From the IMG/VR virus record IMGVR_UViG_3300020045_001604, positions 1 to 64,000 of that record: DNA of 64,000 nucleotides; one strand, 5' to 3'. The stretch is from a virus (taxonomy: Duplodnaviria; Caudoviricetes). Below, one piece after another: positions 239-25,839 of this stretch. Each line of letters starts with the position of its first letter. Position 1 is the stretch's first letter. The notes beneath the pieces were generated by a model that was given only the letters and a program-made list of their open reading frames with translations, searched no databases and was not told where the DNA came from. The translations under genes and the position numbers were made by a program.

Positions 239-1330
239 TTATTGCTTTTTACTTTTTATCTTGTATGAAGCCTCGTTACCTGCGTCTACTGATCTGACAG
301 TTATTCCATCCTTTCGAACTCCTTCTGGTTGAGACTTAACTCTTCCCATGTCGATGTTCTTGGAATCCTTTGAGATGTCTGCTACTCCAGCGGCTTTGCC
401 TTGGTTATAAGCAAACTCAAAAAACTTGTCAATGTCAGCAGCTGCTGCTAATGTTTTGTGATACTTCTCAGCGTCTTTGATTAAGCCATTTTCATCCACG
501 AATTGATTTAAGAAATTCTCAACGTTGGACTGTTTTTCTCTTAATGTCTTACCATCTGCTGGTTTAAACGTAACTTTTTCTTCGCCTAATGTAAAATTGA
601 AACCTTCAAAATTGTCAGACAATACTTCGTTCGTTTTTTCAGCAAAATAAGCAGAACGCTTTTGAACGTCACTAGCACTTGCTTGGCTCGATTCTTTATA
701 CTTCTTATAAGCCTCGTAGCTTTCTTTGTCTTCCTTAGAAACAAAATCCCCATTTGACACAAGTGGAGCTTTATACTGTTCCTTTAGAGACTCAAAATGC
801 TTTGTTGCTTTGTTAAGCTCTTGTTTTAGTTCGAGTTGTTTTTCGATTACTTCGTCCTCATCATCGATTTCCTCATCATAATTGAATTTCTTCATTTTGA
901 ATTCAATTTCTTTGTCAGATAAGGTTGGGTCTGATTCCTTGTAAAATTCTCTGATTAATTTCTTTGGGTCAACTGCTGTAAAGTCACGTTGTAACTTTTG
1001 GTAGTCATCCCATCCACGTCCTGTTTCATCTTTGTATTTTAAGAATGCTGCCACATCCTCTGGTACTTCTACTTTTGGTTGGCTCAACAGTTCGTTAAAT
1101 TCATCAAGAGATTTAACTTCTCTATTTGTTTTTGTTTTAATAAAAGAAAGAACTTCATCTTCAGTCAATTCTGCCTTAGTCACAACTGGGTCGATCACTG
1201 GATCTGCTGGTGGTACTACTGGTGGAATGTCTGCTTTAATTTCGTCTTCGTGCTTTTGGACCAATTCTTTCTCTACTTCCACAGCAGATCTAGACTCTCC
1301 GTCAGTCACTTTTACTCCTTTGATTTCCAT
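239..1330 (-). CDS. Capsid scaffolding protein, copy 1 (363 aa)
   Basis: Acidic, coiled-coil-rich protein between portal and MCP; homologous to 63248..64000 (shared GF.F.(L/V)G, NF..DENGLI and KNIDM motifs). Confidence 0.75.
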   Translation of the reverse strand: MEIKGVKVTDGESRSAVEVEKELVQKHEDEIKADIPPVVPPADPVIDPVVTKAELTEDEVLSFIKTKTNREVKSLDEFNELLSQPKVEVPEDVAAFLKYKDETGRGWDDYQKLQRDFTAVDPKKLIREFYKESDPTLSDKEIEFKMKKFNYDEEIDDEDEVIEKQLELKQELNKATKHFESLKEQYKAPLVSNGDFVSKEDKESYEAYKKYKESSQASASDVQKRSAYFAEKTNEVLSDNFEGFNFTLGEEKVTFKPADGKTLREKQSNVENFLNQFVDENGLIKDAEKYHKTLAAAADIDKFFEFAYNQGKAAGVADISKDSKNIDMGRVKSQPEGVRKDGITVRSVDAGNEASYKIKSKKQ

Positions 1331-3830: not shown

Positions 3831-6077
3831 TTATCTAATAAGTTCACTTCTAGTTCCTGAGTTATTATACTTTGCAAAATTAACACTTATTTTCGACTCT
3901 TTCTTTGCCGCTAAGTATATGTTCTTCTGATTAGCCATAATAGCTAGTCCTGAACTGATTGCAGCATCAAATTTAGTTCTATTGTTTATATCAAATTTAG
4001 CCCACTCCTCTATAGTTCTAGTGAAATACATGTCGCCCATCTCATCAGAATCTCTATAAGTTCCTTCAGTATCCATTCCAACATACTTTTCTATATAAGA
4101 TTGAATAGCGGCCGCGTGCGATTGTTTCACATCTTCAGACGAGTTAGGTATACCTCCAAGCTCTCTTTCTGTTTTTGATAGATTCGTGAAGTGCTTATCC
4201 GGTCTGTTCATTGAAAACCCTCTGTATCCTCTATTCTTAAAGTGATATAGTAGTCTAGGTTTATTATTCTCCACTAGAATTGGCATACCATAAAATACAC
4301 AAGCCATAAGAACCTCCTCAAAAAATATCTCTGCCGTCTGAGGACGAGCTATATACTCAAGGAAGAAATGGTTACTAGGAGCATTATCCATATTAAACTT
4401 AGTAAGTCCGTGTAGAGATCCATTTGATCCTCCTCCTCCGACAGTTCCGGATATATCGTAAGGGTCACAGCCAAAAGCACCAATGTGCTCATTACCAGGG
4501 TACTTGTTTCCATTCTTATAAACTACTTGGTTCTGCATTGCTGAATTAGGAATCCATGAAACAAGGAATCTACCCCTTGGATCTGGAGTCCAAATAACCT
4601 GAGTGTCCTTCTCTCCGTTCTTCCAGTGAAACGATCCTCTAGTTAGTATTTGATCTCTTATTAGAGAGTCATTATAGTCTATCTGTTGATAGATCTTTGT
4701 TAAGTTAAACAAAGACGCCTTGCTCTCATCTCTAAACGCGTGAGACTCTGTTCTGGAGAACTGTCTATAAAACTCGTTCAATGCATCTGCATCATTCTTT
4801 AAAGACGCAACCTCATTCTCCCAATAATCTATAGCTCCGTTTGTTATTAGTCTACCGTCTATCCCAGTTACTGGAGTTTCTGGCTTTCTAAATACAGGCA
4901 TTCCGTATCTATCAATATAACCCTCGAAGTTCCACTCCATTGGAATGTAAAGAGAGTACATACCTGATTTTGTCTGGCCGTTCTCGTTACGTGTTTTTAT
5001 ATTTGAATCCTCGTATAGCTTCTTAAAGTTAGATCCACCCTTAGCAAGCGCGTTAGGAGTTGAACCCATCATACATTTACCGATAATTCTACTACCTAAA
5101 CGAAGACAAGTCTTTCTAACTCGCCATCCGTTAAGGATATTGTTAGGAGCTTCTAGCTTACCAGACTCGTCCTCAACAAGATATACTAATTTCTCCCCGT
5201 CATAACTGTTATCAGCCGTGTTCTTCCAGTCAATAGACGTATCTAATCCTTCTAGTTCAGCTTCTGAACTGTCGTACATATTCTTCTTTGTAATCTTAGA
5301 TGCAGGAACCCTGAAGGCAAGTTCAGTCTTAGGTTTGTCCATACCATCCATGATCGGTTTAAAGAAGAATGGTAGATTGCTAGATATAGGAACAACCTTA
5401 TTAGTAAACATAGTCTTAGCGTCACCCCCTGTCTTAGACTGGATACCAATCCTAGCGTCTTTCGCTAATGTAGCTATATTTACAGCCTCCGATGAAGCCA
5501 TAAAAGAAAATCCAGAACGTCTAATCTTTAAGTAAACCATACCGAAGCATCTGTCATCTGCGCGACATGCCTCCCAGTAAATAAAGAATATTCTATTAGC
5601 CTCACGAAAGTCAGGAAGTCCGACGTCAATCTTTGTCCATTGACAGTACATGTAGTGAGATCCAGTCATATAAGTCTCCACTCCATTATTCATGAAGAAG
5701 AATCCGTTCTCTCTTCTGTCGAACTCAGTCTCTATATAGTCAACCCACTTAGACTTGAAATCATTAGGCATATCATGCCAATGAAATATAGACTTTATTT
5801 TATCTAACTCCTTAGGATATTCAAATGGTTGCCAGTATTGATTTTCTTTTTTCTTATCTCTAGAGTATACTACATCTGGAGTTTTAGGCAGAGCTATAAG
5901 AAGTCCGTTTATATTATAAACTTCACCTATGGTTCCGTTCTTAGATATAACAATCATGTCATACTTCTCGTCGTATCCGTACTGCCAAGACTTTTTATTA
6001 TTCTTGTTAGCTAGAACAGTTGGAGGAATATGATTCTTTACAACCGAGTATAAATTATTTTGATCGTTTTTCTGCAA
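3831..6077 (-). CDS. terL: Terminase large subunit (748 aa)
   Basis: N-terminal ATPase motifs (LKIRRSGFSF; LVEDESGK) and C-terminal RNase H-like nuclease motif (GCDPYD); adjacent to the portal. Confidence 0.9.
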   Translation of the reverse strand: MQKNDQNNLYSVVKNHIPPTVLANKNNKKSWQYGYDEKYDMIVISKNGTIGEVYNINGLLIALPKTPDVVYSRDKKKENQYWQPFEYPKELDKIKSIFHWHDMPNDFKSKWVDYIETEFDRRENGFFFMNNGVETYMTGSHYMYCQWTKIDVGLPDFREANRIFFIYWEACRADDRCFGMVYLKIRRSGFSFMASSEAVNIATLAKDARIGIQSKTGGDAKTMFTNKVVPISSNLPFFFKPIMDGMDKPKTELAFRVPASKITKKNMYDSSEAELEGLDTSIDWKNTADNSYDGEKLVYLVEDESGKLEAPNNILNGWRVRKTCLRLGSRIIGKCMMGSTPNALAKGGSNFKKLYEDSNIKTRNENGQTKSGMYSLYIPMEWNFEGYIDRYGMPVFRKPETPVTGIDGRLITNGAIDYWENEVASLKNDADALNEFYRQFSRTESHAFRDESKASLFNLTKIYQQIDYNDSLIRDQILTRGSFHWKNGEKDTQVIWTPDPRGRFLVSWIPNSAMQNQVVYKNGNKYPGNEHIGAFGCDPYDISGTVGGGGSNGSLHGLTKFNMDNAPSNHFFLEYIARPQTAEIFFEEVLMACVFYGMPILVENNKPRLLYHFKNRGYRGFSMNRPDKHFTNLSKTERELGGIPNSSEDVKQSHAAAIQSYIEKYVGMDTEGTYRDSDEMGDMYFTRTIEEWAKFDINNRTKFDAAISSGLAIMANQKNIYLAAKKESKISVNFAKYNNSGTRSELIR

Positions 6078-6342
6078 ATCCTTGTATTTTAGGTTCTGGC
6101 TTAGCTACTTCTTTAGGATCCTCATTTAGTTTTTCTCTTTCGGATTCTATTCTGTTTAAAATTTCAAACGCATCGAATATAGCTAATTTCTTTGCTGATG
6201 CTGCATTCTTTAGTTTGTCAGCAGCTAAATCAGTACCGTCGTCGATAGGTTTCAATATCTGATCTGATGCAACTTTAATTAGTTCCATTACAGCCTTTTC
6301 TCCAGCTTCAATTATTTGTAATTTAATTTCTTTTAATTCCAT
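6055..6342 (-). CDS. Possible terminase small subunit (95 aa)
   Basis: Small helical protein immediately upstream of and overlapping terL; positional inference only. Confidence 0.4.
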   Translation of the reverse strand: MELKEIKLQIIEAGEKAVMELIKVASDQILKPIDDGTDLAADKLKNAASAKKLAIFDAFEILNRIESEREKLNEDPKEVAKPEPKIQGFAEKRSK

Positions 6343-20696: not shown

Positions 20697-20740
20697 TAAA
20701 AGCATCGGCGCCCGGGACTGCCCAGGCCTAAACCGATGCC
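20697..20740 (-). terminator. Terminator-like hairpin closing the tRNA/ncRNA transcript
   Basis: Minus strand GCATCGG..GCCTGGG-CAGT-CCCGGGC..CCGATGC followed by TTTTAC. Confidence 0.5.
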
Positions 20741-20799
20741 TTAAATAAACGACCTTCGCTGGGACGCTGTTCTACGGGTAGCGTCGAAGGTACTGTTTG

Positions 20800-20873
20800 T
20801 GGTCCCACATGGGCTCGAACCATGGACATCCTGATTATGAGTCAGACGCTCTAACCAACTGAGCTATGGGACC
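20800..20873 (-). tRNA. tRNA with CAT anticodon, most likely tRNA-Ile2 (lysidine type)
   Basis: GGTCCCA/TGGGACC acceptor, AGCTCAGTTGGTTAGAGC D arm, TCTGA-CTCATAA-TCAGG anticodon arm, CATGG-TTCGAGC-CCATG T arm, discriminator A, CCA not encoded. The CTGACTCATAATCAG arm is Ile2-like; Met is not excluded. Confidence 0.9.
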
Positions 20874-20999
20874 GGTTGCCTTTTTGAACGACGTCGAGAA
20901 AGCTAACTCTATCTCCTATACGATGAGAACAACCTCTTGCGCACTGATCTTACGGGAAGTGTGTTGTGTTTTACGATCCCCTCGCGAGCGGGGCTTTTG

Positions 21000-21079
21000 T
21001 GATTGAGGTGAGATTCGAACTCACATATCACCAGTATATTTTTCAATACTGGCTGCCTAAACCGTTCAGCCACTCAATC
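21000..21079 (-). ncRNA. tRNA-like RNA with extended anticodon arm (Ser-TGA-like)
   Basis: GATTGAG/CTCAATC acceptor, GGCTGAACGGTTTAGGC D arm, GTGAG-TTCGAAT-CTCAC T arm. The anticodon region CCAGTAT-TGAAAAAT-ATACTGG has a 7-bp stem and 8-nt loop; no long variable arm. Confidence 0.7.
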
Positions 21080-21185
21080 TCCACTAAGGCAGCGGCGTCC
21101 TTAGTCGCACTTTTCAGGTGATCAGCCTGGAGGTTTTGTTTTAGCCCGGGTGTATTTAACCTCTTAAACCAGGATCCGCTTATCG

Positions 21186-21288
21186 AGACCGAGACAGGAT
21201 TCGAACCTGTAAGAGTTAATATCTCAACACAGTTGTGCTTACTTTACACCAATACTTTCTGCAATGTTTACCATTCCATCACTCGGTC
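21186..21288 (-). ncRNA. tRNA-like RNA (Leu-type scaffold) with 26-nt anticodon loop
   Basis: GACCGAG/CTCGGTC acceptor, GTGATGGAATGGTAAACAT D arm, ACAGG-TTCGAAT-CCTGT T arm, TGCAG/CTGTG stem around a 26-nt loop, small variable hairpin GAG/CTC. Confidence 0.7.
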
Positions 21289-21444
21289 ATTTGCGGTTCG
21301 TTGCCTCTTTATACTTGCACCGCTAGACAAGTCTCATAACCGTCGGACAACTACGTCGAGAGTTTAATATTCACTGCAACTCACAAGCGTTCCCTAACAT
21401 CAGAGACCAATCTTACAAGTTTAACGTGCATGTAAGAGCACTGT

Positions 21445-21666
21445 TTATTGTACAACTTTAATTACGTTACCGTTTTTACTGATGACTACGGTCAAGTCGA
21501 ACTGCTTGTCCAGGTAGTTCATTATCTCGTGAATGTCCCCGTTCATAAAGAACATGTGGAAGTGATTGAAGTGAATGTTCCTACCCGTCTTCTCTACAAA
21601 GTAACGATGGAACCAGCTGATCGGCATGTCGTCCTGCGTTCGTAACTTAATGTATTCGTATTTCAT
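21445..21666 (-). CDS. Hypothetical protein heading the ncRNA transcript (73 aa)
   Basis: ORF with a TATATTTG box at 21671-21678 immediately upstream. Confidence 0.6.
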   Translation of the reverse strand: MKYEYIKLRTQDDMPISWFHRYFVEKTGRNIHFNHFHMFFMNGDIHEIMNYLDKQFDLTVVISKNGNVIKVVQ

Positions 21667-22271: not shown

Positions 22272-22610
22272 ATGTCTATATGACGATTAAGCACCTAATC
22301 CATGACAAACTATGACGAAATATGACGCCAAATGACAAGATTTAAAATAATTGTCATGGCGCTAGGCCACGCCAGTAAAGGAAAGTTTACGAAATATGAC
22401 GCCATGACGTTTTTATTCCTATATAGGGCTATATACGTTTTTATATATATATTATTTTTTTTTTAAATGCATTTAGGATAGTAAAAATCGACATAACGTC
22501 ATAAAACGTTAATTATCAGTTAGTTAACGAAAAAAACTCGACATAAAATCGACATAAATTTCCAAAACTCGACATAATCCCAGTGTTTACGGGACTTCCC
22601 GCGTCATGAG
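22270..22610. repeat. Iteron-like inverted heptamer array around an AT-rich core; candidate replication origin
   Basis: (T/C/A)ATGAC(G/A) at 22279, 22301, 22311, 22321, 22331, 22395, 22403; opposite-orientation CG(A/T)CAT(A/G) at 22489, 22498, 22539, 22550, 22570, 22602; TATATATAT and T-run core at about 22420-22480. Confidence 0.6.
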
Positions 22611-22896
22611 ATTATTTGCGTGTGAATTGGTTTATGCGTAGATATACAGAGACTTGAAATAGCCCACGTCCAAACCTTCCCCACACAAATCCAATAGTAA
22701 GCAAATACAATCCGTAAAACACTGATAATCAATACATTAAACAAACTTCGTTATTTTTTGTTGAATAATTGTCAATATCAACACAAATCTGTTGCATTAT
22801 TCTCATCAAAATAATCAATTCACTGAGAATGTCATAAAAATTAGAACAAAATCAAAAATAATTAAACTTTTATTTTTTTATTCAAAACTAACGGCG

Positions 22897-22904
22897 TAGG
22901 TTTG
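22897..22904 (+). promoter_or_regulatory. -7 promoter box for the early transcript
   Basis: TAGGTTTG after a long AT-rich region and before a structured ~270-nt leader. Confidence 0.55.
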
Positions 22905-23107
22905 TCCTGTTCAAATGAGCGACTGGAGTTAACCAGTTATTAAATCGGGTGTTAGGCTTCCCTATTAGCAAGTAGCGAGACCACAGCGATAAAGTGGCGG
23001 GAGTCAAACAAGACTATAAAATTGGGTGTAGCTACTCTGGAATATGCGGTCAAAGTAATCCGCGAAGTCCGAAGCTACGATACTGCCAACTACATAGGCA
23101 AAGGTCG

Positions 23108-23164
23108 TTGACGTATATGGATGTGTTATCCATACTGATGAGTCGCAGAACGACGAAACGTTAA
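23108..23164 (+). ncRNA. Hammerhead ribozyme HH1, type III
   Basis: Stem III TTGACGT/ACGTTAA; cleavage triplet GUA (23113-23115); stem I TATGGAT-GTGTT-ATCCATA; core CTGATGA; stem II GTCG-CAGAA-CGAC; GAAA. Confidence 0.93.
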
Positions 23165-23173
23165 TTACTTATT

Positions 23174-23410
23174 ATGAAAGCAGAAATTTTAAAAGCAGTA
23201 GAAAACAATAAAAAAGTAATAGTATATGATTTAATTTTTACATCATTCAGAAATTGGAATGGAGAAAGAGAGTATAAAATGCAAAGTGATAGAAATAGAG
23301 ATAAATGGAAAACTTATGATTCAGAAAAAGAATATATAAAGGCAATAATGCAAAGAGTAAATTATTACATCAAAAGAGGATTTCCTAATGTAATAGAAAT
23401 TCAAGGTTAA
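23174..23410 (+). CDS. Early hypothetical protein between HH1 and HH2 (78 aa)
   Basis: ORF starts 9 nt after HH1; its TAA lies in the 5' strand of HH2 stem I. Confidence 0.7.
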   Translation: MKAEILKAVENNKKVIVYDLIFTSFRNWNGEREYKMQSDRNRDKWKTYDSEKEYIKAIMQRVNYYIKRGFPNVIEIQG

Positions 23411-23454
23411 CTGACGAGTCTTAAATAGACGAAACGCCGAGAGGCGTCTTAACC
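23405..23454 (+). ncRNA. Hammerhead ribozyme HH2, type I
   Basis: Stem I GGTTAA/TTAACC; core CTGACGA; stem II GTCT-TAAAT-AGAC; GAA; stem III ACGCC-GAGA-GGCGT; cleavage after GUC at 23448. Confidence 0.93.
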
Positions 23455-23470
23455 AATTAAATTAATTATT

Positions 23471-23722
23471 ATGAATTCAATATCAAAAACACATAGAGGA
23501 TGTACTTACTTTGGAAGTTCTGAAGAAGCGATAAATAAAACAATACAGGAAGCAGAATTTCAACGCTCAATTTTTTATAGAAGCAGCGTATATGCTTACT
23601 CTTGTTTTGCTAGATTATTAAATGACAACTCAGTAGAATTTACAGAATCTTTTAATAACGGAGAGCGTCGTAAAACATCTAACTTTAAAAGTAAAGATGA
23701 TTTTTGGAATAGCAAAGGTTAA
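23471..23722 (+). CDS. Early hypothetical protein between HH2 and HH3 (83 aa)
   Basis: ORF whose TAA lies in the 5' strand of HH3 stem I. Confidence 0.7.
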   Translation: MNSISKTHRGCTYFGSSEEAINKTIQEAEFQRSIFYRSSVYAYSCFARLLNDNSVEFTESFNNGERRKTSNFKSKDDFWNSKG

Positions 23723-23767
23723 CTGACGAGATCTAAATGATCGAAACGGGCACTGCCCGTCTTAACC
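23717..23767 (+). ncRNA. Hammerhead ribozyme HH3, type I
   Basis: Stem I GGTTAA/TTAACC; core CTGACGA; stem II GATC-TAAAT-GATC; GAA; stem III ACGGGC-ACT-GCCCGT; cleavage after GUC at 23761. Confidence 0.93.
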
Positions 23768-24105
23768 AATTTAATTATTTAACATCATGACAAAATCACA
23801 AAAGCAAGGTAGACTATACCTACAGGTAACAATCGTATTAGTAATAGTAATCTTTAATCTACTAGCATATGCAGTATCATAGCAACAACGAAATAGAACG
23901 TCTATACCTAGACTACGTAAACAACTGGCTAAGCGCAACAAACTGGGCAAGCCACCACGGACTAAACAAGCACCAATCAAATTACATCTTAAAAAAAGGC
24001 AAATCATTATGGCGACAAAAATCTACAACAAGATAAGCAAGTTCCTATTCGGAGACAACAAGGGCGTAACACAAAGACACTTTTAATAATCTAAATTAAT
24101 TAATC

Positions 24106-24656
24106 ATGAAAGCAACTTTAAACATCGGATTAAACAACAACCCATTGAGCCAAGAGGCAATCATCAACAAGTTAAGAGAGGACTACGACATCGACACGTA
24201 CAAGTTCGGCATCGGACGATACGAGGACGAGCACGAGCCGACTCTTATTGTAGAGCTAGAGAGTACATACGCTAGGACTAGCCACTTCATTAAGAAGATC
24301 GAAGAGTTGTCCACGATACTAACACAGAACTGCATCGCGGTAAGCACAGACCAGTTCGACCTACTAGTGTACGCACAGAACTACAACGGACAACGCTACA
24401 AGTTTGATAACCAATACTTTATACGATAATGACACTACAACTATACCGCAGACAACTATCTAACAACGCGCTGACTATCGACGATGGTGGTCAGCCGTTC
24501 TTTATCCCGAAGAGTTTCGAGCACACGATAGTTAACGACTACCTAGTAGTTGTAGACGTACCGAAGTGGTTCGAGGATAAGCACGAGGACACGCTAGAGA
24601 GAATTAAAACAAGCACCAACCTAACAATAAAAAGACTAGGTGACCATATATCATAA
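24106..24656 (+). CDS. Two early hypothetical proteins (24106..24429, 107 aa; 24429..24656, 75 aa)
   Basis: Abutting ORFs with A-rich initiation regions. Confidence 0.65.
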
Positions 24657-24788
24657 CTCCTTTCCAACTTTGAAATGTAGGCCGTGTTGTTGGTTGTATC
24701 GCTACGTTTGTATGGTCACTGAATTGGAAAGATTTGAATTCAAGACGTAAAACAACACATAAGTGACTGCTAGGAAAGACTAGCACAC

Positions 24789-24928
24789 GAAGAGGTGGCG
24801 GAAAAGGAAGACGCTAAATACTTAATATGATTTAACTTATGGAGTTAAGTATAAAAAATCCAATCATTGTAAATTCGTTTAAAATTTTGATAAAAATCAT
24901 AGTGCAGGTTCGAGTCCTGCCCTCTTCA
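24789..24928 (+). ncRNA. tRNA-like RNA (Leu-type scaffold) with 89-nt AT-rich insert replacing the anticodon/variable arms
   Basis: GAAGAGG/CCTCTTC-A acceptor; GTGGCGGAAAAGGAAGACGC D arm; GCAGG-TTCGAGT-CCTGC T arm; internal ATACTTAA/TTAAGTAT stem. Confidence 0.7.
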
Positions 24929-24951: not shown

Positions 24952-25839
24952 ATGAGAGTAATTATCACACAAGGCGACTACGGATTCGGTCGCAACTGGA
25001 CGCTAGAGTACAACAAAAAACAATTCTTCCTAGGCCAAGACGTAAAGTTCTGTCAAAGGGTTTTAGGTATAGGGCCTAGAGTAATCATTGATGTAATTGG
25101 AACGGCAGAGATTGACAACAACACAATAGGCAACAAGAAACTGGCCAAGTTTATTGTAAGCCAACTGGGGTTGACGCGACAAAATGTAAAACAACTTAAT
25201 ACTTGGGAACTATGTGCACAATAGCAGACAACAACAAACTTATAGCCGAGTTTATCGGTTACCCATCAAAAAGCATAGACTCAATAGAAGCTACGCTAAT
25301 AGAGAACTCCTATCATTGGTACTCGGGACGGAAAAAATTCTACTATATAAGTGGAGACTATCACGCAGAAGACTACTTGCTATTCCATTTAGATTGGAAC
25401 TGGTTAATGAGTGTAGTAGATAGGATAGAGTCTATGTCTTATGCAAAGGGAAGACGATACTACCTATCAGTAGACAAGTCACACGTACAGATAAGGATAG
25501 ATAGAATGAACTACCAACCTTATAGCAAGTGGGGTTTAAGTAACGACAAATTAAAAGCAACATACAAAGCAGTAATCGAATTTATTAATTTTTATAACAG
25601 ACAACAAAATGAAAACTAAAAACCCAACGGCATTTCCATTAAAACACGCAGACGACAAGTTCAATCCAGGCATGACACTACGCGACTACTTCGCAGGTCA
25701 AGTACTAACTGGAATACTATTAGACCATGAGGCTTGGAGCATAGGAACAATATCAAATGATATAGCTATTAGAGCATATCAAATAGCCGAAGCAATGTTA
25801 AAAAGAAGAAAAGAATATGAGTCTGAAGATAACAGATAG
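24952..25839 (+). CDS. Three early hypothetical proteins (24952..25224; 25203..25619; 25609..25839)
   Basis: Overlapping ORFs. 25609 carries the common phage AFP..GMTLRDYFA motif and 25203 the FH.DWNWLM.VV..IE motif. Confidence 0.65.

Follow-up and report, generated by a model that had tools for sequence, protein, structure and literature searches.

What would a phage do with three self-cleaving ribozymes set close together at the head of a predicted early operon? The question arises from a 64-kb stretch (positions 1 to 64,000, called the window below) of the 73,787-bp IMG/VR virus record IMGVR_UViG_3300020045_001604, a genome that CheckV rates as complete and that codes for a P22-like portal, a collagen-repeat fibre, a BT4734-type primase, a helicase and GroEL. 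Within 660 nt of the window lie three co-oriented hammerhead motifs (HH1, HH2 and HH3), which flank two single open reading frames (ORF1 and ORF2) and so make up a clustered array of the kind described from phages. We consider it about 75% probable that these hammerheads, which are of the active type and occupy the first ~850 nt of a predicted rightward early transcript, cut that transcript co-transcriptionally and thereby insulate each cassette.

We compared the three motifs with the hammerhead core criteria of Perreault et al. 2011 (PMC3088659), and each carries C3 U4 G5 A6 N7 G8 A9, G12 A13 A14, an A15.1-U16.1 pair and an H17 that is not G, with the core-adjacent pairs 10.1-11.1, 1.1-2.1 and 15.1-16.1 intact (Table 1). 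Read from the sequence, stems I, II and III measure 7-8, 4 and 6-7 bp in HH1 and 6, 4 and 5-6 bp in HH2 and HH3; a descriptor scan returned 8/4/8, 6/4/5 and 6/4/6 bp for HH1, HH2 and HH3, and both the minimum free energy and the centroid folds of all three are the canonical hammerhead three-way junction. With Rfam cmscan in E-value mode (3-kb search), HH1 scored 45.1 bits (E 5.8e-8), HH2 31.9 bits (E 2.6e-5) and HH3 27.3 bits (E 8e-4), and over the whole 73,787-bp record the E-values were 3.4e-10, 1.5e-7 and 4.7e-6, with no hammerhead matched besides these three. The matches run from end to end of the models, HH1 to Hammerhead_3 (RF00008) and HH2 and HH3 to Hammerhead_1 (RF00163), both of clan CL00010. 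A preliminary description of this DNA had placed three complete hammerheads of these types and cut sites at these coordinates; sequence, E-value search and folds agree with it, all three motifs lie on the + strand, and the Rfam covariance models match all three over their full length, though under the gathering scores.

Table 1. Features in and around the hammerhead array, in window coordinates; cut sites are predicted.
Feature	Coordinates	Strand	Remarks
Candidate Bacteroidota-type -7 promoter element TAGGTTTG	22897..22904	+	fits TAnnTTTG
Non-coding leader RNA, predicted 5' cleavage product	22905..23115	+	3' end A23115, would carry 2',3'-cyclic phosphate
HH1, type III	23108..23164	+	cut after A23115 (GUA); core CUGAUGA, GAAA
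ORF1, 78 aa	23174..23410	+	stop TAA within HH2 stem I
HH2, type I	23405..23454	+	cut after C23448 (GUC); core CUGACGA, GAAA
ORF2, 83 aa	23471..23722	+	ATG 23 nt past HH2 cut; stop TAA within HH3 stem I
HH3, type I	23717..23767	+	cut after C23761 (GUC); core CUGACGA, GAAA
Hydrophobic 31-aa ORF	23787..23882	+	ATG 26 nt past HH3 cut; would be first gene of remaining transcript

The two type I copies have an identical stem I (GGUUAA/UUAACC) and differ in stem II (GUCU/AGAC in HH2 versus GAUC/GAUC in HH3) and in stem III (CGCC/GGCG versus CGGGC/GCCCG); that these differences are compensatory, as had been proposed, can be read directly from the sequence. To cleave fast at low Mg2+, a hammerhead needs its stems I and II to be joined by a tertiary contact of their loops or bulges. 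The loops are kept across homologues (type III loop I UGUGUUA-like and loop II CAGAA or CAAAAG; type I loop II UAAAU-like), and for the type I loop II, opposite an open stem I of only 6 bp, no tertiary-contact partner was identified.

If the motifs were chance matches or decayed, inactive look-alikes, scores below the Rfam gathering thresholds would be expected of them, as is the case here, but 100 dinucleotide shuffles of the window gave a mean of 0.09 descriptor matches, and of 0.01 matches of comparable quality, against three within 660 nt on one strand. The cores are moreover perfect, and covariation and placement are kept in 47 loci, so that we regard this explanation as scarcely credible. 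Apart from the three, the descriptor scan of the 64-kb window returned two poor - strand matches (cuts 52189 and 4188), which we rejected as chance: they have 4/4/4-bp stems and loops of ~60-100 nt, lie within large ORFs and are unseen by Rfam.

The 47 loci come from a set of 80 related loci (identified by L numbers below) that we gathered via the phage GroEL. Of the 91 distinct hammerheads that the descriptor located in them, 43 are of type I and 48 of type III, and about two chance matches would be expected in that much DNA; the carriers are GroEL-encoding phages, their arrays hold one to four hammerheads, and every copy lies on the strand opposite GroEL, which corresponds to the + strand of the window. 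Covariation was counted in plain MAFFT alignments of 36 distinct type I and 40 distinct type III sequences. Helices are 99.6% paired in type I, with double changes in 12 of 14 pairs, and 99.5% paired in type III, with double changes in 11 of 14, percentages that are inflated by a descriptor that demands paired stems; core columns are invariant in both alignments, and sliding the partners in control alignments lowers pairing to 25-47%. The syntenic orthologues of HH1 are untouched by this bias: in phages with GroEL 87-100% identical, stem II reads GUCG/CGAC, GAGG/CCUC, GCUA/UAGC or GCCA/UGGC, and the rest of the ribozyme is identical. Judged by this record of covariation, the three motifs are genuine hammerhead ribozyme genes under selection. 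Further along the operon, a conserved 107-aa ORF is immediately preceded in L013, L016 and L018 by a type I hammerhead whose stem I is GUUAAA/UUUAAC; in the window this ORF is 24106-24429, and 24037-24105 is without a hammerhead.

We then related the ribozymes to the reading frames around them. An ATG-initiated ORF of at least 25 aa starts 19-35 nt past the cut in 95% of type I copies (median 23.5), compared with 11% of random positions, and behind type III copies the ATG lies a median of 22 nt past A15.1. On the other side, in 40 of the 43 type I cases the upstream ORF stops close by, the last base of its stop codon lying at -7 to +10 relative to where the hammerhead begins; this codon is often the TAA within GGUUAA (so in both window copies) or the UGA of the core. 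Hence the whole intercistronic gap around the type I copies consists of ribozyme and start region, and the open helix of these copies is always 6 bp. This quantitative stop-ribozyme-start geometry, together with a layout that puts type III after a leader and type I between genes, is new. In distant relatives a strong hairpin precedes the type III copies (median -16.7 versus -4.5 kcal/mol in controls). Throughout L038-L089 (for example in L086, L089 and L073) we also noted, within the 45 nt upstream of the type III hammerheads and immediately before their stem III, a conserved GC-rich hairpin of 10-11 bp that often has a GUGUCUUCAAAGACAC core; this hairpin has no U-tract and is therefore no intrinsic terminator. 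Every upstream product would end in a fold, whether this is the body of a hammerhead, a hairpin or, as in the window, the leader's 3' domain.

Such ends bear on the idea that cleavage is a means of shut-off or tuning, in which the products are exposed to decay and the amount or lifetime of the early message is limited. A 2019 review does name "different stabilities or translation efficiencies" as possibilities (PMC6765202). However, every product would have a structured 3' end, supplied by the body of a hammerhead, by the domain of a leader or by a hairpin dedicated to this, and the distance to the start region is short and fixed in each, which looks like use and not disposal; we therefore hold this role to be quite improbable.

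According to the preliminary description, the array would cut the earliest mRNA into single-gene units and the make-up of ribozyme-ORF units might vary among relatives. Two ribozyme-bounded units of 333 nt and 313 nt do hold one ORF each (78 and 83 aa), but HH1 does not part two ORFs. Likewise, real co-oriented hammerheads in one predicted transcription unit speak for cutting into single-gene units, but a survey of the relatives gave no such rule: spacings range from 235 to 2302 nt, units hold one to several ORFs, and gene content varies. It is the anatomy of the locus that supports cutting of the early mRNA into single-gene units in the window.

That anatomy includes a change of gene direction, from leftward up to 22271 to rightward from 23174, which places the array just inside the rightward small-ORF/replication block and beside a divergent control region. 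A candidate promoter element lies there (Table 1), and the homologous place in relatives reads TATGTTTG or TATATTTG followed by a conserved GUUCAAAUGA. We take TAnnTTTG to be the Bacteroidetes -7 promoter consensus; the promoter reading of 22897-22904 depends on this assumption, and it would put the candidate start of an early transcript at about 22909-22911. From 22905 to the end of the array the + strand has neither a second TAnnTTTG, the next match being at 24703, nor a terminator-like site, so that one transcript across the array is the simplest reading. The array is accordingly predicted to lie within one transcription unit, where the rightward small-ORF/replication operon begins. In public sequencing runs, Logan contigs from relatives (shares of at most 0.11) cover, in pieces, the leader, HH1, HH3 and genes downstream, and two read-length pieces from an RNA library fall inside the ORF2 unit, these contigs being uninformative on ends, strand and level.

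What HH1 separates from ORF1 is a conserved structured non-coding leader. A core of ~140 nt (22975-23115, "family A") is conserved and structured, and the leader has no conserved ORF. It is 82% identical to Flavobacterium phage elemoA over 22977-23179, that is, leader core plus HH1, which is the only part of 22300-24500 with a match in the phage database and is common to 68 Flavobacterium elemo phages; besides this leader and HH1, these sequenced phages, which have Flavobacterium sp. BAL314 as host, possess a type I hammerhead (ribozymes at L001:2638-2692 and 4429-4486). We built a covariance model (R1) from six short leader forms with a hand-defined structure. The window scores 58.6 bits with it over the leader core (E 6e-10), 19 loci are matched, and in the alignment fitted to R1 pairing reaches 93% of cells, with double changes at 18 of 23 pairs. 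RNAalifold, run on a plain MAFFT alignment, recovered only three short helices because the leader subgroups align out of register. Family A is built of helices P1-P6, and one hairpin among them has a conserved AAAUA loop; the element occurs among others at L001:2499-2644 and L033:6916-7033 and in 16 further loci, and is missing from the closest relatives of the window. A second, unrelated structured leader ("family B") was seen at the same place in L010:2690-2850(-), L013:4139-4300(-), L016, L017, L021 and L025, in carriers whose GroEL is 77-100% identical to that of the window (100% in L010, 97% in L013); it too covaries (GUAUGG/CCAUAC versus GAGUAG/CUACUC) and also has an AAAUA-loop hairpin. 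The leader gave no match in Rfam, and covarying, uncatalogued leader RNAs that precede an HH1-type ribozyme are new. In L097 a hammerhead-like element that the descriptor missed (6034-6090, +) stands behind the family A leader; it has U-U at pair 10.1-11.1 and the core CUGAAGA, and may be a decayed or variant ribozyme.

Put together, these observations suggest the following course of events. Host polymerase would transcribe from the Bacteroidota-type promoter at ~22897, and each ribozyme would fold during transcription and cut itself, after 23115, 23448 and 23761. The products would be a ~205-nt leader RNA with a structured 3' domain; a 333-nt RNA (23116-23448) made up of the HH1 body at its 5' end, ORF1 and the HH2 body at its 3' end; a 313-nt RNA (23449-23761) with a free 22-nt AU-rich leader, ORF2 and the HH3 body at its 3' end; and the rest of the operon, beginning 25 nt before the 31-aa ORF. 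Given that the open helix is short and AU-rich, the two halves should part after cutting, and their parting would free the stretch before each ATG from that helix. A freed start region would matter because the likely hosts initiate without a Shine-Dalgarno (SD) sequence and depend on unstructured leaders; for Bacteroidia, PMC6847099 and PMC7797042 describe mRNA structure, and no SD sequence, as what tunes translation. Upstream products would keep a compact fold and a 3' cyclic phosphate, and downstream products would begin with a 5'-OH. The ribozymes would thus act as natural insulators that give each coding or non-coding cassette defined ends, stability and translation regardless of its neighbors.

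The same ends had led to the suggestion that the excised units could be circularized, with either a host ligase of the RtcB type or the hammerhead itself joining the 313-nt (and 333-nt) RNAs into translatable circles. HH2 and HH3 share their stem I, so the 5' end of the 313-nt unit could pair with its own HH3 body and bring 5'-OH and cyclic phosphate together, and RtcB is present in Bacteroides, which served as the control in our domain search. That search, however, found no RtcB or RNA-ligase domain in the phage, the 333-nt unit has no complementarity between its ends, neighboring type I copies in L013, L015 and L018 differ in stem I, so that the property is not conserved, and comparable arrays gave Perreault et al. 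no detectable circular or spliced products (PMC3088659). We accordingly do not retain the suggestion, and translatable circles seem to us very improbable.

We also compared the sequence between the ribozymes with that of the closest relatives, whose GroEL is 87-100% identical. Homology with the window ends near 22920-22950 and within the array comes back only at HH1 (23111-23175/89), HH2 (23403-23493) and HH3 (23713 onward), leader, ORF1 and ORF2 having been replaced. Conservation within the array of these near-identical relatives is confined to the ribozymes, which stand as islands among cassettes (leader, ORF1, ORF2) that have been swapped; this observation is likewise new. Across the set, the 95 hammerhead-adjacent ORFs fall into 63 families, and families move between type III and type I slots. 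A homologue of ORF2, for example, occupies the first slot in L104, from the type III to the type I hammerhead, and the 31-aa ORF stands behind a type I hammerhead in L010, L015, L018 and L104. A comparison by eye of stem III variants with the downstream ORF families gave no simple linkage, and at least three stem III variants precede the 31-aa ORF, so we do not claim a simple linkage of stem and cassette.

Could the hammerheads be mainly recombination borders, their ~50 nt of conserved sequence and the AU-rich start region serving as homology for swaps, with cleavage secondary or tolerated? The survival of homology at the ribozymes alone while leader, ORF1 and ORF2 are replaced, the presence of one ORF family in different slots and the independent assortment of stem II and III variants (L015:2907-2956 joins the stem II of the window's HH3 to the stem III of its HH2) all point this way. 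Yet sites that served recombination alone could do without the intact catalytic core and the compensatory changes in three helices that are found across 91 copies, and a part in recombination is compatible with cleavage, which makes it more an added role than a rival. As the main explanation we judge it unlikely. A combined reading is, tentatively, that the early operon begins with a system of exchangeable cassettes whose fixed borders are the hammerheads. Small protein genes and leader families A and B would be swapped at the ribozymes, each ribozyme providing homology for crossover and guaranteeing expression of the cassette as its own RNA, its ends defined and its start region free, and the ~205-nt leader released by HH1 would represent a new class of early phage small RNA, for instance anti-defence or polymerase-directed; we think this possible, with the odds against it. 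If it is true, ribozymes join the small set of elements that organize gene exchange in phage accessory regions, and the leaders are new phage non-coding RNA classes.

Neither ORF1 nor ORF2 matched a Pfam or PHROG family, and the part in host takeover that the preliminary description considered for them is a guess. Homologues of ORF1 (59-88% identity) occur in four other viral contigs and are absent at this place in the closest relatives; neither the descriptor nor Rfam found a hammerhead near these four. ORF2 has six homologues (65-99% identity) with a conserved core in common, one of which, in L102, has its own promoter-like site and no ribozyme. A peptide-pattern search of viral contigs gave no ORF2 relatives, and ESM Atlas gave no usable match. 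The AlphaFold2 model of ORF2 has a predicted local distance difference test score of 82 and no PDB match at E ≤0.001; the best PDB matches are weak (E ≥0.085) and include PUR-alpha/Whirly-like beta-beta-beta-beta-alpha repeats.

Several points weigh against insulation by co-transcriptional cleavage. At its gathering thresholds (48.5 bits for RF00008, 34 bits for RF00163) Rfam reports no hammerhead, the scores being 2-7 bits short of what is a curation cut-off and no structural feature; the Rfam seeds are mostly viroid, satellite and animal copies, which have all core nucleotides and the three helices in common with the copies here and differ from them in stem III or stem I and in the loops. 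The pairing percentages are inflated by the way in which homologues were collected. Homologues of ORF1 and ORF2 stand elsewhere without a ribozyme, so that ribozymes are not required for expressing these genes. For this phage we infer transcription and cleavage, and any effect on stability or translation, from anatomy and conservation. The host is probably Bacteroidota/Flavobacteriia-like, as judged by likeness to Flavobacterium phage and by the style of promoter and leader, and it is a presumption that 5'-OH and cyclic-phosphate ends stabilize RNA in Flavobacteriia.

Some other features of the region were recorded along the way. Downstream in the operon, 24789-24928 (+) is a tRNA-like element with a 7-bp acceptor stem, a canonical T arm and an ~88-nt AU-rich insert in place of the anticodon region; TACGTTTG lies upstream of it at 24703-24710, and downstream comes an AU-rich leader of the same kind, with an ATG at 24952. 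At the homologous place ARAGORN calls a tRNA-Leu(UAA) in L104 and odd tRNAs in L018 and L013, and the element could be a second processing point of the same operon, dependent on RNase P/Z. On the other side of the array, the stretch 20700-21450 is richer in GC and has no convincing ORFs; in it lie a normal tRNA-Met (20799-20873) and, 125 nt away at 20999-21079 (-), an odd tRNA called by ARAGORN whose anticodon has four bases (aaaa). In L006, an elemo-like phage contig, positions 884-919 (-) match the DUF805b RNA motif with 35.3 bits, the gathering score being 35.6.

Phage hammerhead arrays as such are not new. Perreault et al. described multiple hammerheads that flank individual genes or short gene blocks in prophages, proposed that they process transcripts to single-gene mRNAs, and showed cleavage in vitro for three triple arrays (from Agrobacterium tumefaciens, Azorhizobium caulinodans and Clostridium scindens) and in E. 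coli for one (PMC3088659). The array studied here resembles theirs in having several hammerheads of mixed types within 1-2 kb, on the coding strand, flanking single small phage genes of variable content. In contrast to theirs, it belongs to a phage whose presumed host group is Bacteroidota-like and initiates translation without SD sequences. Its first ribozyme stands behind a structured non-coding leader instead of a gene, its type I copies exactly fill the space between a stop codon and the next start region, and it would head an early operon; its cassettes differ between near-identical phages, and the array is known from sequence alone. Our literature search found nothing specific on hammerheads in Flavobacterium phages or at the start codons of phage genes, and the 2019 review states that the purpose of hammerheads in phage genomes remains to be defined (PMC6765202).

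The predicted unit-length RNAs, bounded by hammerhead cuts and carrying 5'-OH and 2',3'-cyclic phosphate ends, and the stem I shared by the two type I copies of the window recall the hammerhead-bounded circular RNAs of Avsunviroidae, satellite RNAs and retrozymes (PMC6765202). Unlike these, the array belongs to the operon of a DNA phage: neither RNA replication nor a reverse transcriptase is involved, no ligase is encoded, and the end complementarity is not conserved in relatives. With 91 distinct ribozymes, a fixed stop/start geometry and SD-less hosts, the clade is an unusually clean natural data set, and since cultured members exist (the 68 elemo phages), insulation and processing are directly testable. 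The engineered counterpart is RiboJ, a hammerhead-derived 5'-UTR (untranslated region) insulator that removes upstream context and gives a gene a defined 5' end; as a synthetic construct it forms no family in which a natural element could be classed. Like RiboJ, the hammerheads of this phage are self-cleaving ribozymes set just before a start region; unlike RiboJ, they form a natural array and would also shape the 3' ends of the RNAs upstream.

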